From contig JBBCJC010000001.1 of the NCBI GenBank assembly GCA_037189525.1, positions 352,001-416,000 of the forward strand: a stretch of 64,000 nt of DNA, given 5' to 3'. Under the pieces are notes generated by a model. The model ran no database searches and was not told the DNA's origin. It worked only from the letters and a program-made list of their open reading frames with translations. This document shows, piece by piece, positions 24,266 through 34,889 of the stretch. The stretch comes from Gemmatimonadales bacterium (GTDB lineage Bacteria; Gemmatimonadota; Gemmatimonadetes; Gemmatimonadales; GWC2-71-9). The translations under genes and the position numbers were made by a program. How positions within the stretch are numbered: position 1 is the first letter of the stretch; each line of letters opens with the position of its first letter.

Positions 24266-25393
24266 TCAGGCCGGCGCGGCGTGCGTCACGTCGCTCGTCC
24301 GGCGGGCCCACGCTTCAGGGCCAAAGGCGCGAAGCATCCGTTGGTGTGAGCGAACCGCCGCCATCAGCGTCGGCTGCTGATAATACGGCACCCCGTGCTT
24401 CGCCGCGATTCGCTCGACGATCGTACTGATGGCCGGATAGTGGATGCTGCAGACTTTGGGGAACAGATGATGTTCGACCTGGTAATTGAGGCCGCCCACA
24501 TACCAGGTCAGCAGCTTGTTGGAGCGGGCAAAATTCGAGGTGGTCTCCATTTCGTGGAGCAACCACTGGTCTTCCATCCGCCCCTGCTCGTCGGGCGCCG
24601 GAAACTCGGGACCTTCGACGACGTGGGCCAACTGGAAGATGACGCCGAGGATGAAACCCGCCACCAGGTGCATGACCAGGAACGCGATCAGATACTGCCA
24701 CCACGCCACGTTCGAGAGCACCGCGATCGGAATGATCAGCGCCCAGGTGTAGTAGAGTCCTTTGGTCACGAACAGATTGACCCACTCACCCACCGGATGC
24801 TTCTTGTCCTCGTACGGGCCCAAATTCTTCTGGAAGAAGTATTTGTAGTCCTTGCCGAAGACCCAGAACAGGGTCGACAGCCCGTAGGCAAAGAAGGCGT
24901 AGTAGGGCTGGAATCGGTGGATCCACAACAACGGAGAATTGGGCGACAGGCGGAGCAGCGGCGAAACGGTCAGGTCTTCATCGACACCTTCGATATTGGT
25001 GTAGGTGTGATGAATCACGTTGTGAGTGATTTTCCAGAGGTAGCCGTTCGCGCCAAGAATGTCGAACAATCGCCCGATCGTGGCATTCACTTTGGGATTG
25101 TCCGAATAGGCGCCGTGCAGAGCGTCGTGCGTAACCGCAAAGCCGATCCCGGCAAAGCCGATGCCCATCAGGACCATCAGGCCCATAAGCGGCCAGAAAG
25201 TCGGATTGAGCGCCAGCACCAATCCGTAGCTGCCGAAAGTGATCAGCACCAGCACGGCCGTCTTGACCATCATGGCCGTGTTGGCTTTGCTCGAAATCCC
25301 GCGGCTCTTGAAGTACTGGTCGACTTCTCGTTTGAGTTCGCGAACGAACGCTTCCGCATTGCGAGCCGGGAACGTGATACCCGAAGTGCTCAA
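24266..25393 (-). CDS. Membrane fatty acid (acyl-CoA) desaturase
   Basis: His boxes HDALH, HNVIHH, QVEHHLFP; TTG start with GCAGGAG SD. Confidence 0.92.
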   Translation of the reverse strand: MSTSGITFPARNAEAFVRELKREVDQYFKSRGISSKANTAMMVKTAVLVLITFGSYGLVLALNPTFWPLMGLMVLMGIGFAGIGFAVTHDALHGAYSDNPKVNATIGRLFDILGANGYLWKITHNVIHHTYTNIEGVDEDLTVSPLLRLSPNSPLLWIHRFQPYYAFFAYGLSTLFWVFGKDYKYFFQKNLGPYEDKKHPVGEWVNLFVTKGLYYTWALIIPIAVLSNVAWWQYLIAFLVMHLVAGFILGVIFQLAHVVEGPEFPAPDEQGRMEDQWLLHEMETTSNFARSNKLLTWYVGGLNYQVEHHLFPKVCSIHYPAISTIVERIAAKHGVPYYQQPTLMAAVRSHQRMLRAFGPEAWARRTSDVTHAAPA

Positions 25394-25535
25394 GTCGATC
25401 TCCTGCGATGTCTGCAGAACGGGGAAACGAGGCCGTAGTTGGCAGGGATGATGCCCCTCAAGCAAATTGCATCCGAACCCATCGACCGGCAAGTCTCGGT
25501 CCGTCCGGATAACGACTTTTTCACAGGTTATTCCT

Positions 25536-27773
25536 ATGAAATTCACCTCCTGGTGGATTCCCGCACTGTTGGCGGTGATACCGTTCACCCCTGAACCATT
25601 TCAGGAACCAACTCCGATCCGAGGTTACTCGGCGCAGGACTCGCGAATCCAGCGTGATTGGGAAGCCAAGTTCCAGGCAGTGCCGTCGACCGACAGCCTG
25701 CGGTCGTACCTTCGCACGCTGGCCGCGCGGCCTCAGTTCCTGGGATCACCGGGAGGCAAGCGCAACGCGGAGTGGCTGGTCGAGGTGTATCGGAGTTGGG
25801 GACTCGACGCCAAAATCGAAACGTTCGAAGTCCTCTTTCCGACGCCGAAGGAGCGGCGGGTCGAACTGCTTGCCCCGGTGCGCTTCACGGCCGCGCTTCG
25901 CGAACCGCCGGTGCGCGGCGACCACTCCTCGACCCTGCAGAGCGAGCACCTGCCGTCCTACAACGCCTATTCGATCGACGGCGACGTAACCGGCCCGCTG
26001 GTGTTCGTGAACTACGGCATCCCCGCCGACTACGATGAACTCGAGCGGCGCGGCATCTCGGTCAAAGGCGCCATCGTGATTGCCAAGTACGGCGGATCGT
26101 GGCGCGGCATCAAACCCAAGGTCGCGGCGGAACGCGGCGCCATCGGCTGCATCATCTACTCCGACCCGGCACAGGACGGCTTCGTGCAGGGCGACGTCTA
26201 TCCCGACGGCCCCTACCGGCCGCCGCATGGTGTGCAGCGCGGCAGCGTAGCCGACATGCCCCTCTACGCCGGTGATCCGTCGACACCCTTCGTCGGCTCC
26301 GTACCCGGCGTCACGCCGCTGCCGCTCGACCGGATCGAATCGCTCACCAAGATTCCGGTGCTGCCCATTTCGTACGCCGACGCGGAGCCCTTGCTGCGCC
26401 AGCTGGGCGGCGATGTGGTCCCCCCAGCCTGGCGCGGCGGCCTGCCGCTGACCTACAAGACCGGCCCCGGCCCCGCGACGGTCCGCCTCAAGGTCGCGTT
26501 CGACTGGAAACGGGTGCCGCTCTACAACGTGATGGTGACGATTCCCGGCACCGATGCCGCCGCCGAGTGGATTCTGCGCGGCAACCATCGCGACGGCTGG
26601 GGTGCCGGCGCCGAGGATCCGCTCTCGGGCACGGCGGCCCAGATGGAGGAGCTGCGCGCCTTTGCCCAGCTGCTCCAGCAGGGCTGGAAGCCACGGCGCA
26701 CCATCGTGTACGCCGCCTGGGACGGCGAGGAACAGGGCTTACTCGGCAGCACGGAGTACGTCGAAACCCATCGCGACGAACTCCGGGCCAAGGCCGTCAC
26801 CTATCTCAACACGGATTCGAACGGCCGCGGCTTCCTGAGCATGGGCGGTTCGCATTCGCTGGAGCGCTTCATCAACGACGTCGCTCGCGAAGTCCGCGAT
26901 CCCGAAACCGGCCTCTCGGTCTGGCAGCGAAACCAGGCGCGCGCCATCGCGAGCGGAGACGCCACCACGCGGCGCGAAGCCCGCACCCGCCGCGACCTGC
27001 GCATCGGCGCACTCGGCAGCGGGTCCGACTACACCCCGTTCCTGCAGCACGCCGGCATTGCCGCCTTGAACCTCGGCTTCGGCGGGCACGGGGGCTCCGG
27101 TATCTACCATTCGATCTACGACAGCTTCGAACACTACACCCGGTTCAACGACACCAACTTCGTCTACGGCCGAGCGCTGGCGCAGGTGGTGGGAACGGCG
27201 GTGATGCGACTGGCCGGCGCGCCGGTGCTGCCGCACCACTTCATCGGCATGGCCGACACCTACGGCCGCTACATCGATGAGCTCAAAGCCCTGCTGGTGG
27301 CCAGCCGCGAGGCGGCTCTGGAGCAGAACCGCCAACTCGAGGAAGGCGTCTTCGCGGCGGTTGCCGATCCGCGGTTGCCGCGCAAGCAACCGGACCGGGC
27401 TGCGGTTGCTCCGCATCTCAACCTGACTCCGCTCGACAACGCGCTGACGGTGCTCCAGACCGCCGCCGAGCGCTACGAGTCGGCATTGGCCCGCACCGCG
27501 CTGGACCGGCCGCGACCGGCCACCAACCGGGCCCTCCGTGAGGTGGAGTTTGCCCTGACCAGTACCGAAGGGCTGCCTCGACGGCCCTGGTATCGCCACC
27601 ACATCTATGCGCCGGGGTTCTATACCGGATACGGCGTCAAGACGATGCCGGGGGTGCGGGAAGCGATCGAACAGGGAGACTGGGCCGAAGCCGAACGGGA
27701 AGCCGCGCGGATTGCCGAGCGGTTGCTGGCCGCCGCCGCGGTCATCGATCAGGCGCGCGCCGGCCTCGACTGA
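25536..27773 (+). CDS. Glutamate carboxypeptidase II / transferrin-receptor-like M28B peptidase (PA + TFR dimer domains)
   Basis: Signal peptide; PA domain (VFVNYG...GAIGCIIYSDP), GNHRD, AEDP, WDGEEQG, YHSIYD, WYRHHIYAP. Confidence 0.92.
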   Translation: MKFTSWWIPALLAVIPFTPEPFQEPTPIRGYSAQDSRIQRDWEAKFQAVPSTDSLRSYLRTLAARPQFLGSPGGKRNAEWLVEVYRSWGLDAKIETFEVLFPTPKERRVELLAPVRFTAALREPPVRGDHSSTLQSEHLPSYNAYSIDGDVTGPLVFVNYGIPADYDELERRGISVKGAIVIAKYGGSWRGIKPKVAAERGAIGCIIYSDPAQDGFVQGDVYPDGPYRPPHGVQRGSVADMPLYAGDPSTPFVGSVPGVTPLPLDRIESLTKIPVLPISYADAEPLLRQLGGDVVPPAWRGGLPLTYKTGPGPATVRLKVAFDWKRVPLYNVMVTIPGTDAAAEWILRGNHRDGWGAGAEDPLSGTAAQMEELRAFAQLLQQGWKPRRTIVYAAWDGEEQGLLGSTEYVETHRDELRAKAVTYLNTDSNGRGFLSMGGSHSLERFINDVAREVRDPETGLSVWQRNQARAIASGDATTRREARTRRDLRIGALGSGSDYTPFLQHAGIAALNLGFGGHGGSGIYHSIYDSFEHYTRFNDTNFVYGRALAQVVGTAVMRLAGAPVLPHHFIGMADTYGRYIDELKALLVASREAALEQNRQLEEGVFAAVADPRLPRKQPDRAAVAPHLNLTPLDNALTVLQTAAERYESALARTALDRPRPATNRALREVEFALTSTEGLPRRPWYRHHIYAPGFYTGYGVKTMPGVREAIEQGDWAEAEREAARIAERLLAAAAVIDQARAGLD

Positions 27774-29173: not shown

Positions 29174-29692
29174 TCAGCGTCGCCCGCCGCGGTCCCTGTC
29201 TCCTTTGGGCCGAGTCTTTTCCCGCTCGACGGCGGCGGCCTCGGCCCGGCGGATCATCTTCTCGGGGCTGATCGGATTTGCGCCCGGACGGGGGGCGCCC
29301 ATCTTGAGCGAGATCTGCCCTGCGTCGTCGGTCGAAACCGTCACCGGTCGCCCGCCGCGAACTTCGTAGACACCGAGCACTTCCTCACCGACGGTCGCAC
29401 CGGGCTTGATCCGCTCGATCAGGGCCTCCCGGTTGGCAAATCCCTCCAACGACAGGAATTTGACGCCGCTCGCCCCCTGGATCCTGATCAGGGCGGCAAA
29501 CCGGGACCCGCTCAACGCGCGGATCGACCGAAGATCCGTTCCTTTGGCCAACTCACGTGCCCACCGGGTGGCCTCCTGCTCCTGCGCCGACAACGGCTGC
29601 GCCGGCGCGGCACCGGACTCCGGTCCACGCTTCTGCTGCTTCCGCTCCTGGCTCTTACGGAGCCGTTGGAGATACTCTGGTTCGTCCGACAC
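29174..29692 (-). CDS. Hypothetical basic protein (172 aa)
   Basis: Fills the gap between co-oriented genes; GAGG SD before GTG; no family recognised. Confidence 0.65.
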   Translation of the reverse strand: MSDEPEYLQRLRKSQERKQQKRGPESGAAPAQPLSAQEQEATRWARELAKGTDLRSIRALSGSRFAALIRIQGASGVKFLSLEGFANREALIERIKPGATVGEEVLGVYEVRGGRPVTVSTDDAGQISLKMGAPRPGANPISPEKMIRRAEAAAVEREKTRPKGDRDRGGRR

Positions 29693-29796
29693 GGGGTAAT
29701 TCCTCTACCTTGTTAGTCTGGTAGGATAAGAGGACGATAGAGAGGACGAAAGGCCCGTCCGCCATCGTACCCCAGCTACCGCCGGACTTTTCGCGG

Positions 29797-31140
29797 TCAG
29801 CGAGCGTCGCCAGGCCCCTCGAGCCGCCGCACCAGTTCGCTCGACGGTTCGGGACCGCGCCGGACCTCGATTTCGGCCGCCGCACCGATCCGGAACCAGA
29901 CGGCGCCTCCCTGCGGCGCGGCCCGCAACGCCTTCGGCGTCGGGTGCAGGAACAGCCCGGTCGCATCCAGCGTATCGATGGCCACCGCGCGCTGGAGATC
30001 GCCGACCTCCCGAACCCGTCCCCCGGTCCGCGCCACCGCGTCGTCGAAATTGATCGCCACATCCGCGACGAAGGGCGCCGCGCCCGGCAGGACGACCTTG
30101 CCACCGAGCACCAGCAGGTCGTTCGCGCCCCCGGCGTTGAAGGGCAGATCATCGTACCAGGCCGCCGAAGCCCGTGCGTACCCGCCGGTCGCAATGGCAT
30201 CCAGGGCCGCGAGGATCCCGCCCACATGGAGCGCCCGCAGTCGCTGCTTCTGCGGATCGTCGGGCAGCGCGCCGCTTTCGATCAGGACCGTGCTGGTGCC
30301 CCACTGCTGCATCAGGTCGCCAAAGGCGCGCGGATTGAAGCCGTCGTCGTACTTGGCAATCCGACCCGGAATTTCCGATTCGAACGTCTTGGCGAGGGTG
30401 GCGGCGACCAAACGGGCCCGGGTGCGCACCTCGTTGTAGTTCCGCTCCGCATCGAACGGCGGGGCCAGCAGCGCAATGCCCGCCTGGCGGCCGCCCTGCC
30501 CGACCCGGCTGCGGGCGTTCTGGTCATGCAGATTGAAACCGAACTGCGGATTGAACCGGTCGCGGAAGGTCTTGAGCGTCTGCCCTTCCGGCGTGGACAG
30601 GCGACGGGCATCCCGATTGATGTCGATACCCCAGGCATTTTCCCGCTGGAACAACTCGGCGCCATCGGGGTTGAGCATGGGGATGAACGCAACGGTCAGC
30701 TGGCTCCGCAGCCGCTCCCGGAGCGAATCCCCTTCGGCTTCGGCCAGAAACCGGAAGATATCCGCCAGGGCCATCGACGCCGTCGACTCGTCGCCGTGCA
30801 TCTGCGACCACAAGAGGACTGTAGTGGGACCGGTGCCGTAGGTAATCGCCCGAATGGGGCGTCCCTGAACCGACTTGCCAATCTCCTCGGTACGGAAAAC
30901 CGGGGAGGCGAGTGACGGCTCCAGCGCCTTCCAGTAGGTTGCATGATTGAAGCGACGCCCGCTGATCGCATCGACCCGATAGCGGCCTGCCAGTTCGAGC
31001 CCGGTCTTCGCATCCATCGTCGTGGGCGGCGCCTCTGAAGCCGGGCTGGGTTTGGCCTGGTCAGAACCGCAGGAGGCCAGTCCAGGCAGCGTGACGGCGA
31101 CAGCGAGCGTGAGGCGAAGGGATCGGGCACGAAGGGGCAT
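29797..31140 (-). CDS. M14-family zinc carboxypeptidase lipoprotein
   Basis: Lipobox LASC; QMHGDES, LNPDG, DINRD, NLHDQ, LIESG. Confidence 0.88.
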   Translation of the reverse strand: MPLRARSLRLTLAVAVTLPGLASCGSDQAKPSPASEAPPTTMDAKTGLELAGRYRVDAISGRRFNHATYWKALEPSLASPVFRTEEIGKSVQGRPIRAITYGTGPTTVLLWSQMHGDESTASMALADIFRFLAEAEGDSLRERLRSQLTVAFIPMLNPDGAELFQRENAWGIDINRDARRLSTPEGQTLKTFRDRFNPQFGFNLHDQNARSRVGQGGRQAGIALLAPPFDAERNYNEVRTRARLVAATLAKTFESEIPGRIAKYDDGFNPRAFGDLMQQWGTSTVLIESGALPDDPQKQRLRALHVGGILAALDAIATGGYARASAAWYDDLPFNAGGANDLLVLGGKVVLPGAAPFVADVAINFDDAVARTGGRVREVGDLQRAVAIDTLDATGLFLHPTPKALRAAPQGGAVWFRIGAAAEIEVRRGPEPSSELVRRLEGPGDAR

Positions 31141-31329
31141 CGGCACGGGGATTCTCGCGGAAAAGGTCGGAAGGGAACGCCGGCCTAATGTGCGCCGTTC
31201 TGCCGACATGGGCAAGCGCACGCGACAGGGCCACGTCTCCCGCGGCATCCGGCGCTCGACGGACGGGTTTGTTGGGCTCCCCGAGCGACTCGACCCAGCC
31301 TGACACCGGAGCGATTTGCGCTTTCGTAC

Positions 31330-31360
31330 CACGATATATACAATCAATTGCGCAATTACA
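31330..31360 (+). promoter_or_regulatory. AT-rich promoter/operator upstream of the PTE-MBL operon
   Basis: Perfect 12-bp palindrome AATTGCGCAATT (31346-31357) just after TACAAT, a -10-like hexamer. Confidence 0.5.
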
Positions 31361-31394
31361 TGAGGGTCCGTCCCGAGACTCAATAGGGGGCACG

Positions 31395-32456
31395 GTGACG
31401 ACACGGCGGGCGTTTATTGGGGACGCGGGTCGGCTGACAGTCACGGCAGTCGCCGGCCCCGCGCTGGGGGTGTTCGAAGCCGTCAACCGGACCGCGGCGA
31501 ATCGGCGCGTCCATACCGTGACCGGCCCGGTCGATGCGCAGCAACTGGGATTTACGCTCCCGCACGAACACATCGCGGTGCGAAGCGCGGGGCTGTTCGA
31601 TGCTTGGCCGGAGCTCTTCGGCCCGCGCGCCCGATTCGTCGATCGGGTTGTCACACGACTCAAAGCCCTGCGAGCGGCGGGAGTCGCCACCATCGTCGAG
31701 GTCACACCCAGCGATCTCGGCCGTGATGTCCGCCTGCTGCGCGAGGTCTCGCGCAAATCCGGTGTTCGCATCGTCGCCTGCACCGGACACTGGCTCACGC
31801 CCTCGCCGTCGATGGCGGCGCGGTCGATGGAGGAGCTGACCGACTTCTTCGTGCTGGAACACAGCCGAGGCCTCGACGGCACCGGAATCAAACCCGGCGT
31901 GATCAAGATCGCCTCCGATCGCGAGGTCACCCCGTTCCTCGACAAAGCACTCCGGGCCGCCGCCCGGGCAGGCAAGCAGACAGGGCTTCCGGTCACGACG
32001 CACAGCCACGCCGCGAGCCGAGGAGGAGAACGGCAGGCTGAGCTCTTCGAATCGGAAGGCCTCGACCCGGGGCAAGTGTGCATCGGTCATTCGGACGAGA
32101 GCAACGATCTCGACTATCTGACCGGGCTCGCCAGGCGGGGGTATATGATCGGGATGGATCATTTCCCGGTCGGCACCCGAAGCGCCCCAGGATTGCTCAG
32201 CTGGCAGGCGCGCGCCGATACGGTGGCGCGGCTGCTCGAGGCGGGCCATGCCGACCGGCTGTTGTTGTCGAACGACTGGTTCTTCGAGCTTTCGATTGCG
32301 CCGACAGGTTCGCTGGATGCGCTGGAACGGACCAACCCGGAGGGGATGCTGTTCCTGATTCGTACGGTGCTTCCGTACCTGGCGGAACGCGGCGTGACAC
32401 CGGCACAGATCCGAACCATCACGGTCGAGAATCCGAGCCGTTTCTTTGGCCGGTGA
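31395..32456 (+). CDS. Phosphotriesterase (OPH/OpdA-like), Tat-exported
   Basis: GTG with GGGGG SD; TRRAFIG Tat signal; metal ligands HEH, K (VIKIA), TTH, IGHSD, SNDW; colinear by eye with OPH as I recall it. Confidence 0.92.
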   Translation: MTTRRAFIGDAGRLTVTAVAGPALGVFEAVNRTAANRRVHTVTGPVDAQQLGFTLPHEHIAVRSAGLFDAWPELFGPRARFVDRVVTRLKALRAAGVATIVEVTPSDLGRDVRLLREVSRKSGVRIVACTGHWLTPSPSMAARSMEELTDFFVLEHSRGLDGTGIKPGVIKIASDREVTPFLDKALRAAARAGKQTGLPVTTHSHAASRGGERQAELFESEGLDPGQVCIGHSDESNDLDYLTGLARRGYMIGMDHFPVGTRSAPGLLSWQARADTVARLLEAGHADRLLLSNDWFFELSIAPTGSLDALERTNPEGMLFLIRTVLPYLAERGVTPAQIRTITVENPSRFFGR

Positions 32457-32483
32457 CCGGACAACTTCTTTGGGAGATTCACG

Positions 32484-33437
32484 ATGAGAATCGTCGTTGC
32501 CGGAATCGCGCTGGTCCTGGCGGGTACGAGCGGCACCTCGCCATCGAGTCCGATGACACGGTCCTCCGAAGCGCAGGCGGGACACGTCCGGATTGCGGTT
32601 GGTGACATCGAGGTCGTGGCGCTCAACGACGGCACCGTCCCCTGGCCGACCCGGACGGTCCTTCCGACGGCAACCGCCGAGCAGATCGATCGGGGACTGC
32701 GCGCGGTGGGGCTCACCGACCCGGTGGGCATGACCTACAGCGGATTCCTGGTCAGGACGAAGACCCACCGCATCCTGGTCGATGTCGGCACCGGAGGGAA
32801 GTTCGACGGCATGGCCGCGTTTCGCGGCGCCGGACAGCTTTTGTCGAACCTCCGCGCAGCCGGATACGAGCCCGACCAGATCGATGAGATCTACATCTCC
32901 CATCTGGGCCCCGATCATATCGGAGCGCTCGCGAACACGACGTCCGGAGCCACCTTTCCGAACGCGAAGCTGCGGGCCGCGCGTCTCGAAGTCGCGGGAT
33001 TCATGGACGAACGCCTGCGCCACGGCCCGGATTCACTCTGGCGCCGGTTCCAGGCAGAGATGTTTGCCCCCTATATCGCTGCCGGGCGCTTCGAGCCCTT
33101 CGACGGCGATGTCGAGCTTGCCCCTGGCATCACGGCACTCGCCACGCCGGGGCATACTCCGGGTCACACGTCATACCTGGTCGAGAGCGGCGGAGAGCGG
33201 CTGCTGATCCTGGGCGATGTCCTGCATCTCAGCGCGCTCCAGTTTGCCTACCCCTCACTCCCGACACTTTTCGATGCGGATCGGACGGTGGGAGCTCAGC
33301 AACGGGAACGGATCCTCAAATTGGCAGCTGAGCAGAATTATCTAGTGGCGGGAGCGCATCTGCCGTTCCCGGGGATCGGTCGCGTCCGTGTCGACGGAAC
33401 AGGATACCGCTGGGTTCCGATCAGTTCCGCGCAGTAA
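32484..33437 (+). CDS. Exported MBL-fold hydrolase, methyl-parathion-hydrolase/OPHC2-like
   Basis: GGGAG SD, Sec signal; ILVDVG, AAGYEPDQIDEIYISHLGPDH, PGHTPGH, LGDVLH, GAHLPFPGIG...GYRWVP. The second His of HxHxDH is Gly. Confidence 0.88.
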   Translation: MRIVVAGIALVLAGTSGTSPSSPMTRSSEAQAGHVRIAVGDIEVVALNDGTVPWPTRTVLPTATAEQIDRGLRAVGLTDPVGMTYSGFLVRTKTHRILVDVGTGGKFDGMAAFRGAGQLLSNLRAAGYEPDQIDEIYISHLGPDHIGALANTTSGATFPNAKLRAARLEVAGFMDERLRHGPDSLWRRFQAEMFAPYIAAGRFEPFDGDVELAPGITALATPGHTPGHTSYLVESGGERLLILGDVLHLSALQFAYPSLPTLFDADRTVGAQQRERILKLAAEQNYLVAGAHLPFPGIGRVRVDGTGYRWVPISSAQ

Positions 33438-33519
33438 GGATTGGTCGGGATACCGGCCGGCAATCCCGGTCGTATCGGTGAGCAGACGATGGCACTACGA
33501 CTAGCTGATATGCTTGCCG

Positions 33520-33825
33520 CTACCGACTAACGCGAAGACCGGACATGAAGTTCCGCTGCGCTTCAGCGATGGTCGCATCGCGCGCGGCCTGATCTTCGAG
33601 ATCCTCGGCGGACAAACCAAGCCGGAGGGAGGCGTGGAATCGCTCGCCCGGGTGCAGGGCGGTATCGTCGGTGATCTCCGCCAATAACTCCGCAGCCCGC
33701 CGGATCTCATCAGAGCTCTGGCGAAGGACATCAACGGGGCGCGTGGCGGAAACCGGTCGGATCATCGCTCCGTACTCGATAGGGTCGAACTCCTGAACCA
33801 TCTCGAGTATCGGCAGCCCGCGCAA
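33520..33825 (-). pseudogene. Possible 3' gene fragment or small hypothetical protein
   Basis: Helical-looking ORF; the frame stays open about 45 nt past the TTG and ends in a stop inside the operator of the next cassette; no convincing start or SD. Confidence 0.35.
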
Positions 33826-33872
33826 GAACTTGAGTTCCGCGCCGATCCCGTTGCTCCTTGTCGGCTCACAAA

Positions 33873-33902
33873 ACCAAATGTATAGTTACTACTACATTTG
33901 GT
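33873..33902. promoter_or_regulatory. Operator: perfect 10-bp inverted repeat
   Basis: ACCAAATGTA-N10-TACATTTGGT immediately before the AGGAG SD of the ABC ATPase. Confidence 0.75.
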
Positions 33903-33914
33903 ATAGGAGTTATT

Positions 33915-34889
33915 GTGCCCCCTGGAAAGGAATCCGCATCGTCAGAGCTCGCCCTCGACGTGCGCGATCTGCGAATGCAGTACGGGACCAGGGATGTCCT
34001 CGCCGGCGTGTCCTTCACGGCCCGGCGCGGCGAAGTAGTCGCCTTGCTGGGTCCCAACGGCGCCGGCAAGACCACGACGATCGAAATCCTCGAAGGTTTC
34101 CGGATGCGGTCGGCCGGCCAGGTCTCCGTCCTGGGCACCGACCCGGCCAAGGCCGACGAAGCGTGGCGAGCCCGGGTCGGCGTGGTACTGCAATCGTGGC
34201 GCGACCACGGACGGTGGCGGGTCCGCGAACTCCTCAGCTATCTGGCTCGCTTCTACGCGCCGTTTGCAACGGCCACCGCGCGGCGACCTTGGAACGTGGA
34301 CGAACTCATCGAGGTCCTCGGCCTGACCGCGCATGCCGACACCAGGCTGCTGACCCTCTCCGGGGGACAACGGCGGCGCGTCGATGTCGCGATCGGCATC
34401 GTGGGCCGGCCGGAGGTCGTCTTCCTCGACGAGCCCACCGCGGGGTTCGACCCGCATGCTCGGCGCGAATTTCACGATCTGGTGCATCGCCTGTCGGACT
34501 TCGAGAACACCACCGTTCTGATTACCACCCACGACCTGGACGAAGCCGACAAGATCGCGGATCGGATCCTCGTGCTCGACCAGGGACGCATCGTCGCGGA
34601 TGGCACCGCCGACCAGTTGGCGCGAGACTTCTCGACGGCCGCCGAAGTACGCTGGATTTCCGGCGGACGCCGCCACGTTCACGCGGTGCGCGACGGAGAC
34701 CCAACGGGCTTCGTCCGCAACCTGCTGGCCAACGACGCAGCCGCCACCGAACTGGAAGTGCATCGGGCCAGCCTCGAGGATACTTACATGGCGCTGGTCC
34801 GGCGCGCCGAGTCGGCTGACGTTGCCCGCGCCGGGACGTCCGGAGTGGCACAGGACGACACTACGCAACGATCGGAAGGGCGAGCATGA
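33915..34889 (+). CDS. ABC-2 (DrrA-like) exporter ATP-binding subunit
   Basis: GPNGAGKT, LSGGQ, FLDEPT, TTHDL; GTG with AGGAG SD. Confidence 0.93.
   Translation: MPPGKESASSELALDVRDLRMQYGTRDVLAGVSFTARRGEVVALLGPNGAGKTTTIEILEGFRMRSAGQVSVLGTDPAKADEAWRARVGVVLQSWRDHGRWRVRELLSYLARFYAPFATATARRPWNVDELIEVLGLTAHADTRLLTLSGGQRRRVDVAIGIVGRPEVVFLDEPTAGFDPHARREFHDLVHRLSDFENTTVLITTHDLDEADKIADRILVLDQGRIVADGTADQLARDFSTAAEVRWISGGRRHVHAVRDGDPTGFVRNLLANDAAATELEVHRASLEDTYMALVRRAESADVARAGTSGVAQDDTTQRSEGRA

Follow-up and report, generated by a model that had tools for sequence, protein, structure and literature searches.

Phosphotriesterase (PTE, OPH), whose hydrolysis of paraoxon is nearly diffusion-limited, is a standard example of an enzyme that evolved within decades. 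The original loop-remodelling paper is Afriat-Jurnou 2012. In the available excerpts of PMC6269825 and PMC4068969 the nearest relatives of PTE are put at about 30% identity; those of PMC6269825 also describe catalysis at a bridged two-metal centre as the chemistry of PTE. Laboratory evolution from PTE to an arylesterase included the steps D233E and F306I (PMC4579389, in excerpt). Insertions and deletions in loop 7 raise arylesterase and lower paraoxonase activity (excerpt of PMC7351745); in one preprint, also seen in excerpt, deletion of loop 7 left the arylesterase activity of the wild type unchanged (bioRxiv 2023.11.25.568631). According to the consulted part of PMC11134384, a tyrosine (Y97 of SsoPox) is conserved in metallo-lactonases and absent from PTEs. 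In our search of the full-text literature, which took in few subscription journals, natural relatives with more than about 35% identity to PTE were not described, except for OpdA.

Here we analyzed a gene from a Gemmatimonadales bacterium. The window, i.e. the whole stretch of DNA under analysis, comprises 64,000 nucleotides and contains the following features:

31395..32456, plus strand: PTE-family binuclear amidohydrolase of the Tat-type His254 clade that includes OPH, 353 aa
31395..31499 (end approximate), plus strand: probable twin-arginine signal peptide without lipobox cysteine (TIGR01409, RR motif)
31563..31622, plus strand: loop 1, 20 aa as in OPH, with ligands H57 and H59
31791..31793, plus strand: W133, equivalent to OPH Trp131 (in the outer PLL-type group mostly Tyr)
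31905..31907, plus strand: K171, equivalent to the carbamylated bridging Lys169 of OPH
32001..32099, plus strand: ligands H203 and H232, plus E235 (equivalent to OPH Asp233)
32157..32204, plus strand: loop 7, 16 aa (Asp to Trp), with H256 (equivalent to OPH His254) and, five residues past the Asp, the family-invariant Gly
32268..32345, plus strand: loop 8, 26 aa, with ligand D294; L303, F306, S308 and Y309 of OPH are F, L, I and A
32484..33437, plus strand: metallo-beta-lactamase (MBL)-fold hydrolase resembling MPH and dihydrocoumarin hydrolases (DHCH), motif HxGxDH, 317 residues

The open reading frame at 31395–32456 (plus strand) starts with GTG behind a G-rich, ribosome-binding-like stretch and encodes 353 residues uninterrupted by a stop. 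The protein matched the Pfam profile PTE (PF02126) with 216.9 bits (cut-off 22.4) and the NCBIfam OPH model NF041153 with 340.9 bits, which is under the cut-off of 500. All 60 listed PDB matches were PTE/OPH variants (best E value 2.4e-104). No other PTE-family gene was found in the source genome. A contig from a sequencing run, probably the source run and not independent, was identical to positions 29500–34074 with zero differences.

A preliminary description of the locus had proposed an OPH-like amidohydrolase with all PTE metal ligands and roughly half identity to OPH. Both statements held: H57, H59, K171, H203, H232 and D294 form the complete ligand set, and BLASTP yielded 48% identity to OPH from pPDL2 (170/351; 49.4% for the mature core) as compared to 29–39% for eight PLL/PHP-type outgroup loci. 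OPH/PTE (opd of pPDL2 and pCMS1) and OpdA, at 48–50% identity, have all ligands, Trp131 and the twin-arginine leader in common with the window protein. It also shares His254 (H256) and the lengths of loops 1 and 8 (20 and 26 aa) with OPH, and its loop 7 has 16 aa versus 25 in OPH and is thus nine residues shorter, all of this as first described. The Tat signal fared less clearly: the RR motif and a probable leader are present, but TIGR01409 scored 15.3 bits, just below the cut-off of 16.7. Despite the RR motif the window protein contains no lipobox cysteine, which was found in 4/4 rows of the OPH clade.

An AlphaFold model of the window protein (pLDDT 95) exhibited a (beta/alpha)8 fold and superposed on PTE (1psc) with Z 49.6 and an rmsd of 1.4 A. 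The PLL-A/PLL-B lactonases (SsoPox, PPH, DrOPH, GkL; P83) share the fold and the metal centre (Z 43.0 and 40.8; SsoPox 43.0); they are 32–35% identical, and their Arg/Tyr hallmarks are missing in the window protein, where H256 and W133 are found. PTER, another protein of this fold, is an N-acetyltaurine amidohydrolase. PTER and further non-lactonase members superposed with Z 36–38, as would be expected if the window protein were an amidase or another non-ester hydrolase like them; these proteins are only 25–32% identical, as against 50% and Z 49.6 for PTE, and we consider such an activity very unlikely.

A search with the window protein retrieved 625 matches at E <= 1e-40 out of 8000 scored candidates; the 120 matches listed were 55–93% identical. 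A search with OPH gave 371 matches, with OPH, OpdA and variants first, then one natural protein (P0128) at 68%, then the same family at 45–56%. For tree construction the listed matches of several searches were pooled with proteins from the loci and with plasmid or E. coli outgroups. After exclusion of engineered variants, one frameshifted record and fragments, 485 distinct cores of 501 were kept, some of them near-identical cluster members. The FastTree phylogeny contained a clade of 219 rows (support 0.998), made up of OPH, OpdA in two rows, P0128 and 215 further sequences, the window protein among them; 27 more rows joined this His254 clade at 0.99. The family with Tat signal, His254 and Trp131 comprises at least 215 sequences. 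Among these, the twin-arginine motif was present in 193, His254 in 214, Trp131 in 194 and a loop 8 of 26 residues in 199. The outer group carries mostly Arg at position 254 (103/130) and Tyr at position 131 (85/130). In the next groups out, many of them Dehalococcoidia, a leader is mostly lacking, Arg254 occurs in 91/100 and a 14-residue loop 7 in 71/100.

Named loci of the clade and of the 27 outer rows belong to Gemmatimonadota, Gamma- and Alphaproteobacteria and Acidobacteriota. Occurrence is patchy: an orthologue-level match was found in 2/24 genomes of the same family, and in a sample of the phylum the PTE gene was present in 2/401 genomes, own genome included. The metagenomic protein P83 was considered as a characterised family member and rejected; the PMC4686663 supplement places it at 34.6% identity to OPH, outside the Tat/His254 family. 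We conclude with high confidence that the window protein belongs, as an ordinary member, to an uncharacterised family of Tat-exported binuclear metallohydrolases which is widespread and forms the closest natural kin group of OPH/OpdA. The gene leads to the natural family that most likely gave rise to OPH.

Two further groups were observed. Most of the loci L014–L083 form a large Dehalococcoidia/SAR202 group which is about 40–47% identical and combines Arg254 with an OPH-length loop 8 and a 14-residue loop 7; this group is a better structural intermediate between the PLLs and the His254 clade. Six of its loci contain a distant MBL gene 4–7 kb upstream. An outer Tat clade (L009, L013, L114, L115, P0190, P0194; named loci from Acidobacteriota) has Gln254 and a proline-rich loop 7 of 23 residues.

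The positions of OPH and the window protein were analyzed with IQ-TREE on a subset of 68 of the 485 rows, from which loop 7 had been cut out; the bootstrap was not fully settled. OPH, OpdA and P0128 grouped together (100/100) inside the His254 clade (99/98), while the window protein fell into a separate nested set (96/87, then 97/94). A mixture-model tree of 37 rows gave the same placement (100/99; 96/90), with the sister of OPH not settled. The PLL side of these trees consists of plasmid-borne PLL-type proteins, one of them labelled by its best PDB match 4if2, in place of the SsoPox, AhlA, QsdA, GkL and DrOPH sequences. AU tests were performed on small quick trees of 29 and 32 rows. They rejected a grouping of the window protein with four plasmid-borne PLL-type rows (p 0.027), in agreement with the initial statement that the PLLs are much more distant from it than OPH is and that it lies outside the PLL clade. 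A grouping of OPH and OpdA with the PLL-type rows was rejected as well (p 0.006). Not rejected were the window protein with OPH, OpdA and P0128 (p 0.18), OPH just outside the Tat family (p 0.22) and OPH, OpdA and P0128 with the PLL-type rows (p 0.098). Therefore, the nesting of OPH in the Tat/His254 clade, although recovered in all three trees, is preferred rather than formally established. In these trees, the window protein forms a deep side branch of the clade holding OPH. In similarity to OPH it ranked 139th of 526 by score and 177th of 500 by identity, which rules it out as the closest natural relative of OPH.

The preliminary description had further claimed that the protein lacks exactly the key nine-residue insertion of loop 7 and is itself a candidate missing link between lactonases and PTE. 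Neither claim was supported. Loop 7 is hypervariable: it ranges from 13 to 30 residues in the 215 clade members with a mode of 20, and 16 aa occur only in 29/215. This spread rules out the nine-residue difference as something special. In the window protein and its 120 best matches the loop has 14–21 residues (20 in 48, 17 in 32 and 16 in 24). It measures mostly 23 residues in the outer 27 rows, 10–11 in the PLL-type rows and 23–27 in the nearest natural relatives of OPH, the rows next to OPH in two trees having 23. Compared with PTE, the window protein is 9 residues shorter, whereas the PLLs are 11–14 shorter according to the excerpts of PMC6269825. Aligners break the nine-residue gap between the window protein and OPH into three pieces of 3. 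Thus, there is a match in length and not the same block as in the engineered deletion, which spans residues 265–273 (PMC6269825, in excerpt) and differs in register from the natural gap. A Gly five residues past the loop-7 Asp is found in 213/215 members (Ala in the other two) and also in P0128; the loop-7 Gly of OPH sits eight residues past the Asp. From this ambiguous alignment, the simplest reading is that the first part of loop 7 may have grown by three residues near His257 in OPH, and that the second part would vary freely across the family. Linear parsimony on the 68-row tree gave a loop of 18–19 residues where the His254 clade begins, 23–25 towards OPH and 17 beside the window protein, values that depend on the choice of rows and on weak nodes. 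The window protein probably owes its short loop 7 to the loss of a few residues from a family ancestor with about 18–19.

A primitive short-loop enzyme standing between PLLs and OPH and acting on both homoserine lactones and paraoxon would nevertheless account for several observations. The loop has the length of that of the engineered deltaL7 PTE (5wcr, 6bhk, 6bhl) and aligns ungapped to 5wcr. Superposition of the model on these crystals gave an rmsd of 1.2–1.5 A, the best fit being 1.2 A. The outer groups have a shorter loop 7 (modes 14 and 11), and the AU test leaves the window protein with OPH, OpdA and P0128 unrejected. In contrast, the loop-7 sequence and glycine register are unlike those of the engineered deletion, and 40/47 members of the window protein's own subclade have 20-residue loops. 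The window protein is nested deep, away from OPH (sets of 28 and 8 rows in the 68-row tree), and its grouping with OPH and OpdA without P0128 was rejected (p 3e-6). Furthermore, His254 and Trp131 stand in place of the lactonase Arg and Tyr, whereas, as far as the excerpts of PMC6269825 go, the engineered PTE-derived bifunctional lactonase needed H254R besides the loop deletion; deltaL7-2/H254R has Arg at 254 where the window protein has His. A bifunctional intermediate is thus quite unlikely. What makes the locus interesting is the family, P0128 and the gene pair described below, not the number nine.

P0128 is the closest natural relative of OPH found apart from OpdA. This natural protein, known from one contig of 1615 bases, shows 68% identity to OPH, but its loop 7 of 27 residues is unrelated to that of OPH. 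Its Tat leader contains an OPH-like lipobox, and the protein scored 542 bits on NF041153, above the cut-off of 500. We considered that P0128 might be a chimera with OPH and rejected this: identity is 57–87% per 30-residue window and 30% in loop 7, never near 100%. Since P0128 combines 68% identity with a 27-residue loop, the long loop 7 and His254 probably predate the pesticide-era OPH. A joint reading, which we put forward tentatively and with somewhat more doubt than belief, is that OPH came from the Tat/His254 family. Tat export, a long loop 8, a loop 7 both long and variable, Trp131 and His254 would then be old traits of esterases not acting on AHLs, and OPH would have arisen by remodelling of the pocket together with a minor alteration early in loop 7 rather than by the recent insertion of nine residues into a quorum-quenching lactonase. 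The kin of PTE and those of MPH, two organophosphate hydrolases that evolved independently, would be a linked pair acting on one natural substrate class, and P0128 a surviving near-ancestor. With a natural series at 41–57% identity and one protein at 68–70%, real relatives of PTE become assayable. The family allows the natural substrate to be named and the question to be tested whether growth of loop 7 and His254 long preceded pesticides. It also supplies natural diversity for work on detoxifying enzymes.

The substrate pocket of the family differs from that of OPH. The OPH residues G60, I106, F132, H257, L271, L303, F306, S308, Y309 and M317 correspond to V, L, L, V, a gap, F, L, I, A and L in the window protein, so that only W131 and H254 are kept. 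Throughout the 215 members the OPH pocket residues are nearly absent (G60 in 2, L303 in 4, S308 in 0, F132 in 5, F306 in 1, Y309 in 1 and H257 in 0), and these counts of 0–5 at seven positions speak against a natural phosphoester hydrolase, i.e. a family that already cleaves phosphotriesters or related phosphorus esters in the periplasm and an OPH that refined an old activity. Neither did phosphate-uptake genes recur among the neighbours of 44 loci. The PTE-type His254, Trp131 and loop 8, the linkage to a relative of the second organophosphate hydrolase, MPH, and the finding of a close strain of the source in an activated-sludge sequencing run would fit such an enzyme, which we regard as unlikely. 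An esterase for siderophores or other macrolactones would agree with the probable periplasmic location and with the title of a paper on the interaction of OPH with ferric enterobactin (Parapatla 2020, known here as a citation in excerpts of PMC9045253). The same 44 loci showed no recurrent TonB or iron genes among their neighbours, and the lipobox of OPH is missing from the window protein; hence this possibility appears more remote than any other considered here.

The MBL-fold gene starts 27 bp downstream of the PTE gene, and both are probably co-transcribed. With an E value of 1.4e-71, the best PDB match of its product is AncDHCH1, a dihydrocoumarin hydrolase reconstructed as ancestor of MPH, and comparison with excerpts of bioRxiv 504811 places the protein beside dihydrocoumarin hydrolases. 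It is 41% identical to an MPH. The MPH-specific residues R72, L258 and L273 are V, H and F, which match or resemble the DHCH ancestor; T271 resembles MPH. The HxHxDH motif of MPH/DHCH is changed to HxGxDH with the other ligands kept, and the second His is Gly in 118/119 best homologues. These HxGxDH proteins form a separate clade near MPH (support 100). Lacking one histidine ligand, the partner may not be a typical DHC hydrolase. The protein at 32484–33437 and P0372–P0490 represent a large MPH-like HxGxDH subfamily without one metal histidine.

The pairing was counted in 43 other loci of the His254 clade, leaving out copies of the window and one duplicate; flanking sequence of 1.1 kb was present upstream in 29 of these and on both sides in 25. 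An HxGxDH partner was found near the PTE gene in 5/43 loci, in both gene orders. In 4/43 it lies upstream, adjacent in L101, L102 and L122 and 1.6 kb off in L004. The fifth pair is L086, for which a longer cut was used: in this genome (G023) the partner is located 2.3 kb upstream of a PTE gene of the branch nearest OPH. No partner was seen in 38/43 loci (only 25 of the 43 having 1.1 kb on both sides), and it was absent from 14/14 outer-clade loci and 3/3 opd loci. In the phylum sample 3/401 genomes contain the partner, and both genomes with a PTE gene have it nearby. One genome (G009) has the partner and no PF02126 match. Ten family genomes searched as a whole, incomplete MAGs among them, yielded no HxGxDH partner, two of them having distant canonical MBLs only. 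Between the linked PTE proteins and the window protein identity is only 56–62%, and the linked partners are scattered over the partner tree. The pairing is optional. The clustering may also be unspecific, because G023 holds both genes in a run of other hydrolases. This run (L191, 5117–12749) encodes a serine beta-lactamase-fold protein, the HxGxDH MBL, an alpha/beta hydrolase, the PTE-like protein and a second alpha/beta hydrolase. An MBL gene near opd on pPDL2 was rejected as a remnant of the pair, being only 31% identical over 62 aa with IS21 genes in between. The recurring link to an MPH/DHCH-like gene provides a concrete substrate hypothesis.

Position 233 is naturally Glu in 94/215 members, and position 306 is Ile, Leu or Val in 82, 39 and 33 of 215, respectively. 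Taken together, the lack of the lactonase Tyr/Arg and of the OPH pocket residues, the natural Glu233 and Ile/Leu/Val306, the effects of loop-7 insertions and deletions and the DHCH-like partner favour a periplasmic hydrolase of aryl esters or aromatic lactones. On sequence grounds we therefore lean slightly towards a Tat-exported periplasmic binuclear aryl-ester or aromatic-lactone hydrolase with phosphotriesterase as a side activity, and not an AHL lactonase. For the substrate class, aryl esters or aromatic lactones of the dihydrocoumarin type, the evidence is evenly poised. Against this assignment, the laboratory path to an arylesterase relied on H254R, which is absent from the Tat/His254 family. 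The window protein would be exported in folded form to the periplasm. By analogy to the established chemistry of PTE, two metals bridged by carbamylated Lys171 would activate hydroxide, His256 and Glu235 would occupy the place of the His254/Asp233 pair of OPH, and loop 7 would act as a lid for specificity that varies freely. The enzyme might then hydrolyse carboxyl esters whose leaving group is phenolic, often jointly with the adjacent MPH/DHCH-like enzyme, and phosphotriesters would be cleaved as a side activity only.

No transposase or repeat signature was found beside the window gene, none of the promoter, terminator and repeat signals examined at the locus was informative, and a search of the ESM Atlas returned generic names only. 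On a single contig of the close strain (run X2, depth 6.8) position 31584 is joined to 32474 via about 38 bases; this strain appears to have lost most of the PTE gene (31585–32473) and retained the MBL gene. Elsewhere in the window, a second MBL-fold gene (PF00753; 23182–24195, minus strand) adjoins a class V aminotransferase gene, and an open reading frame at 24266–25588 (minus strand) with a GC content of 58%, lower than its neighbours, resembles by eye a fatty-acid desaturase.
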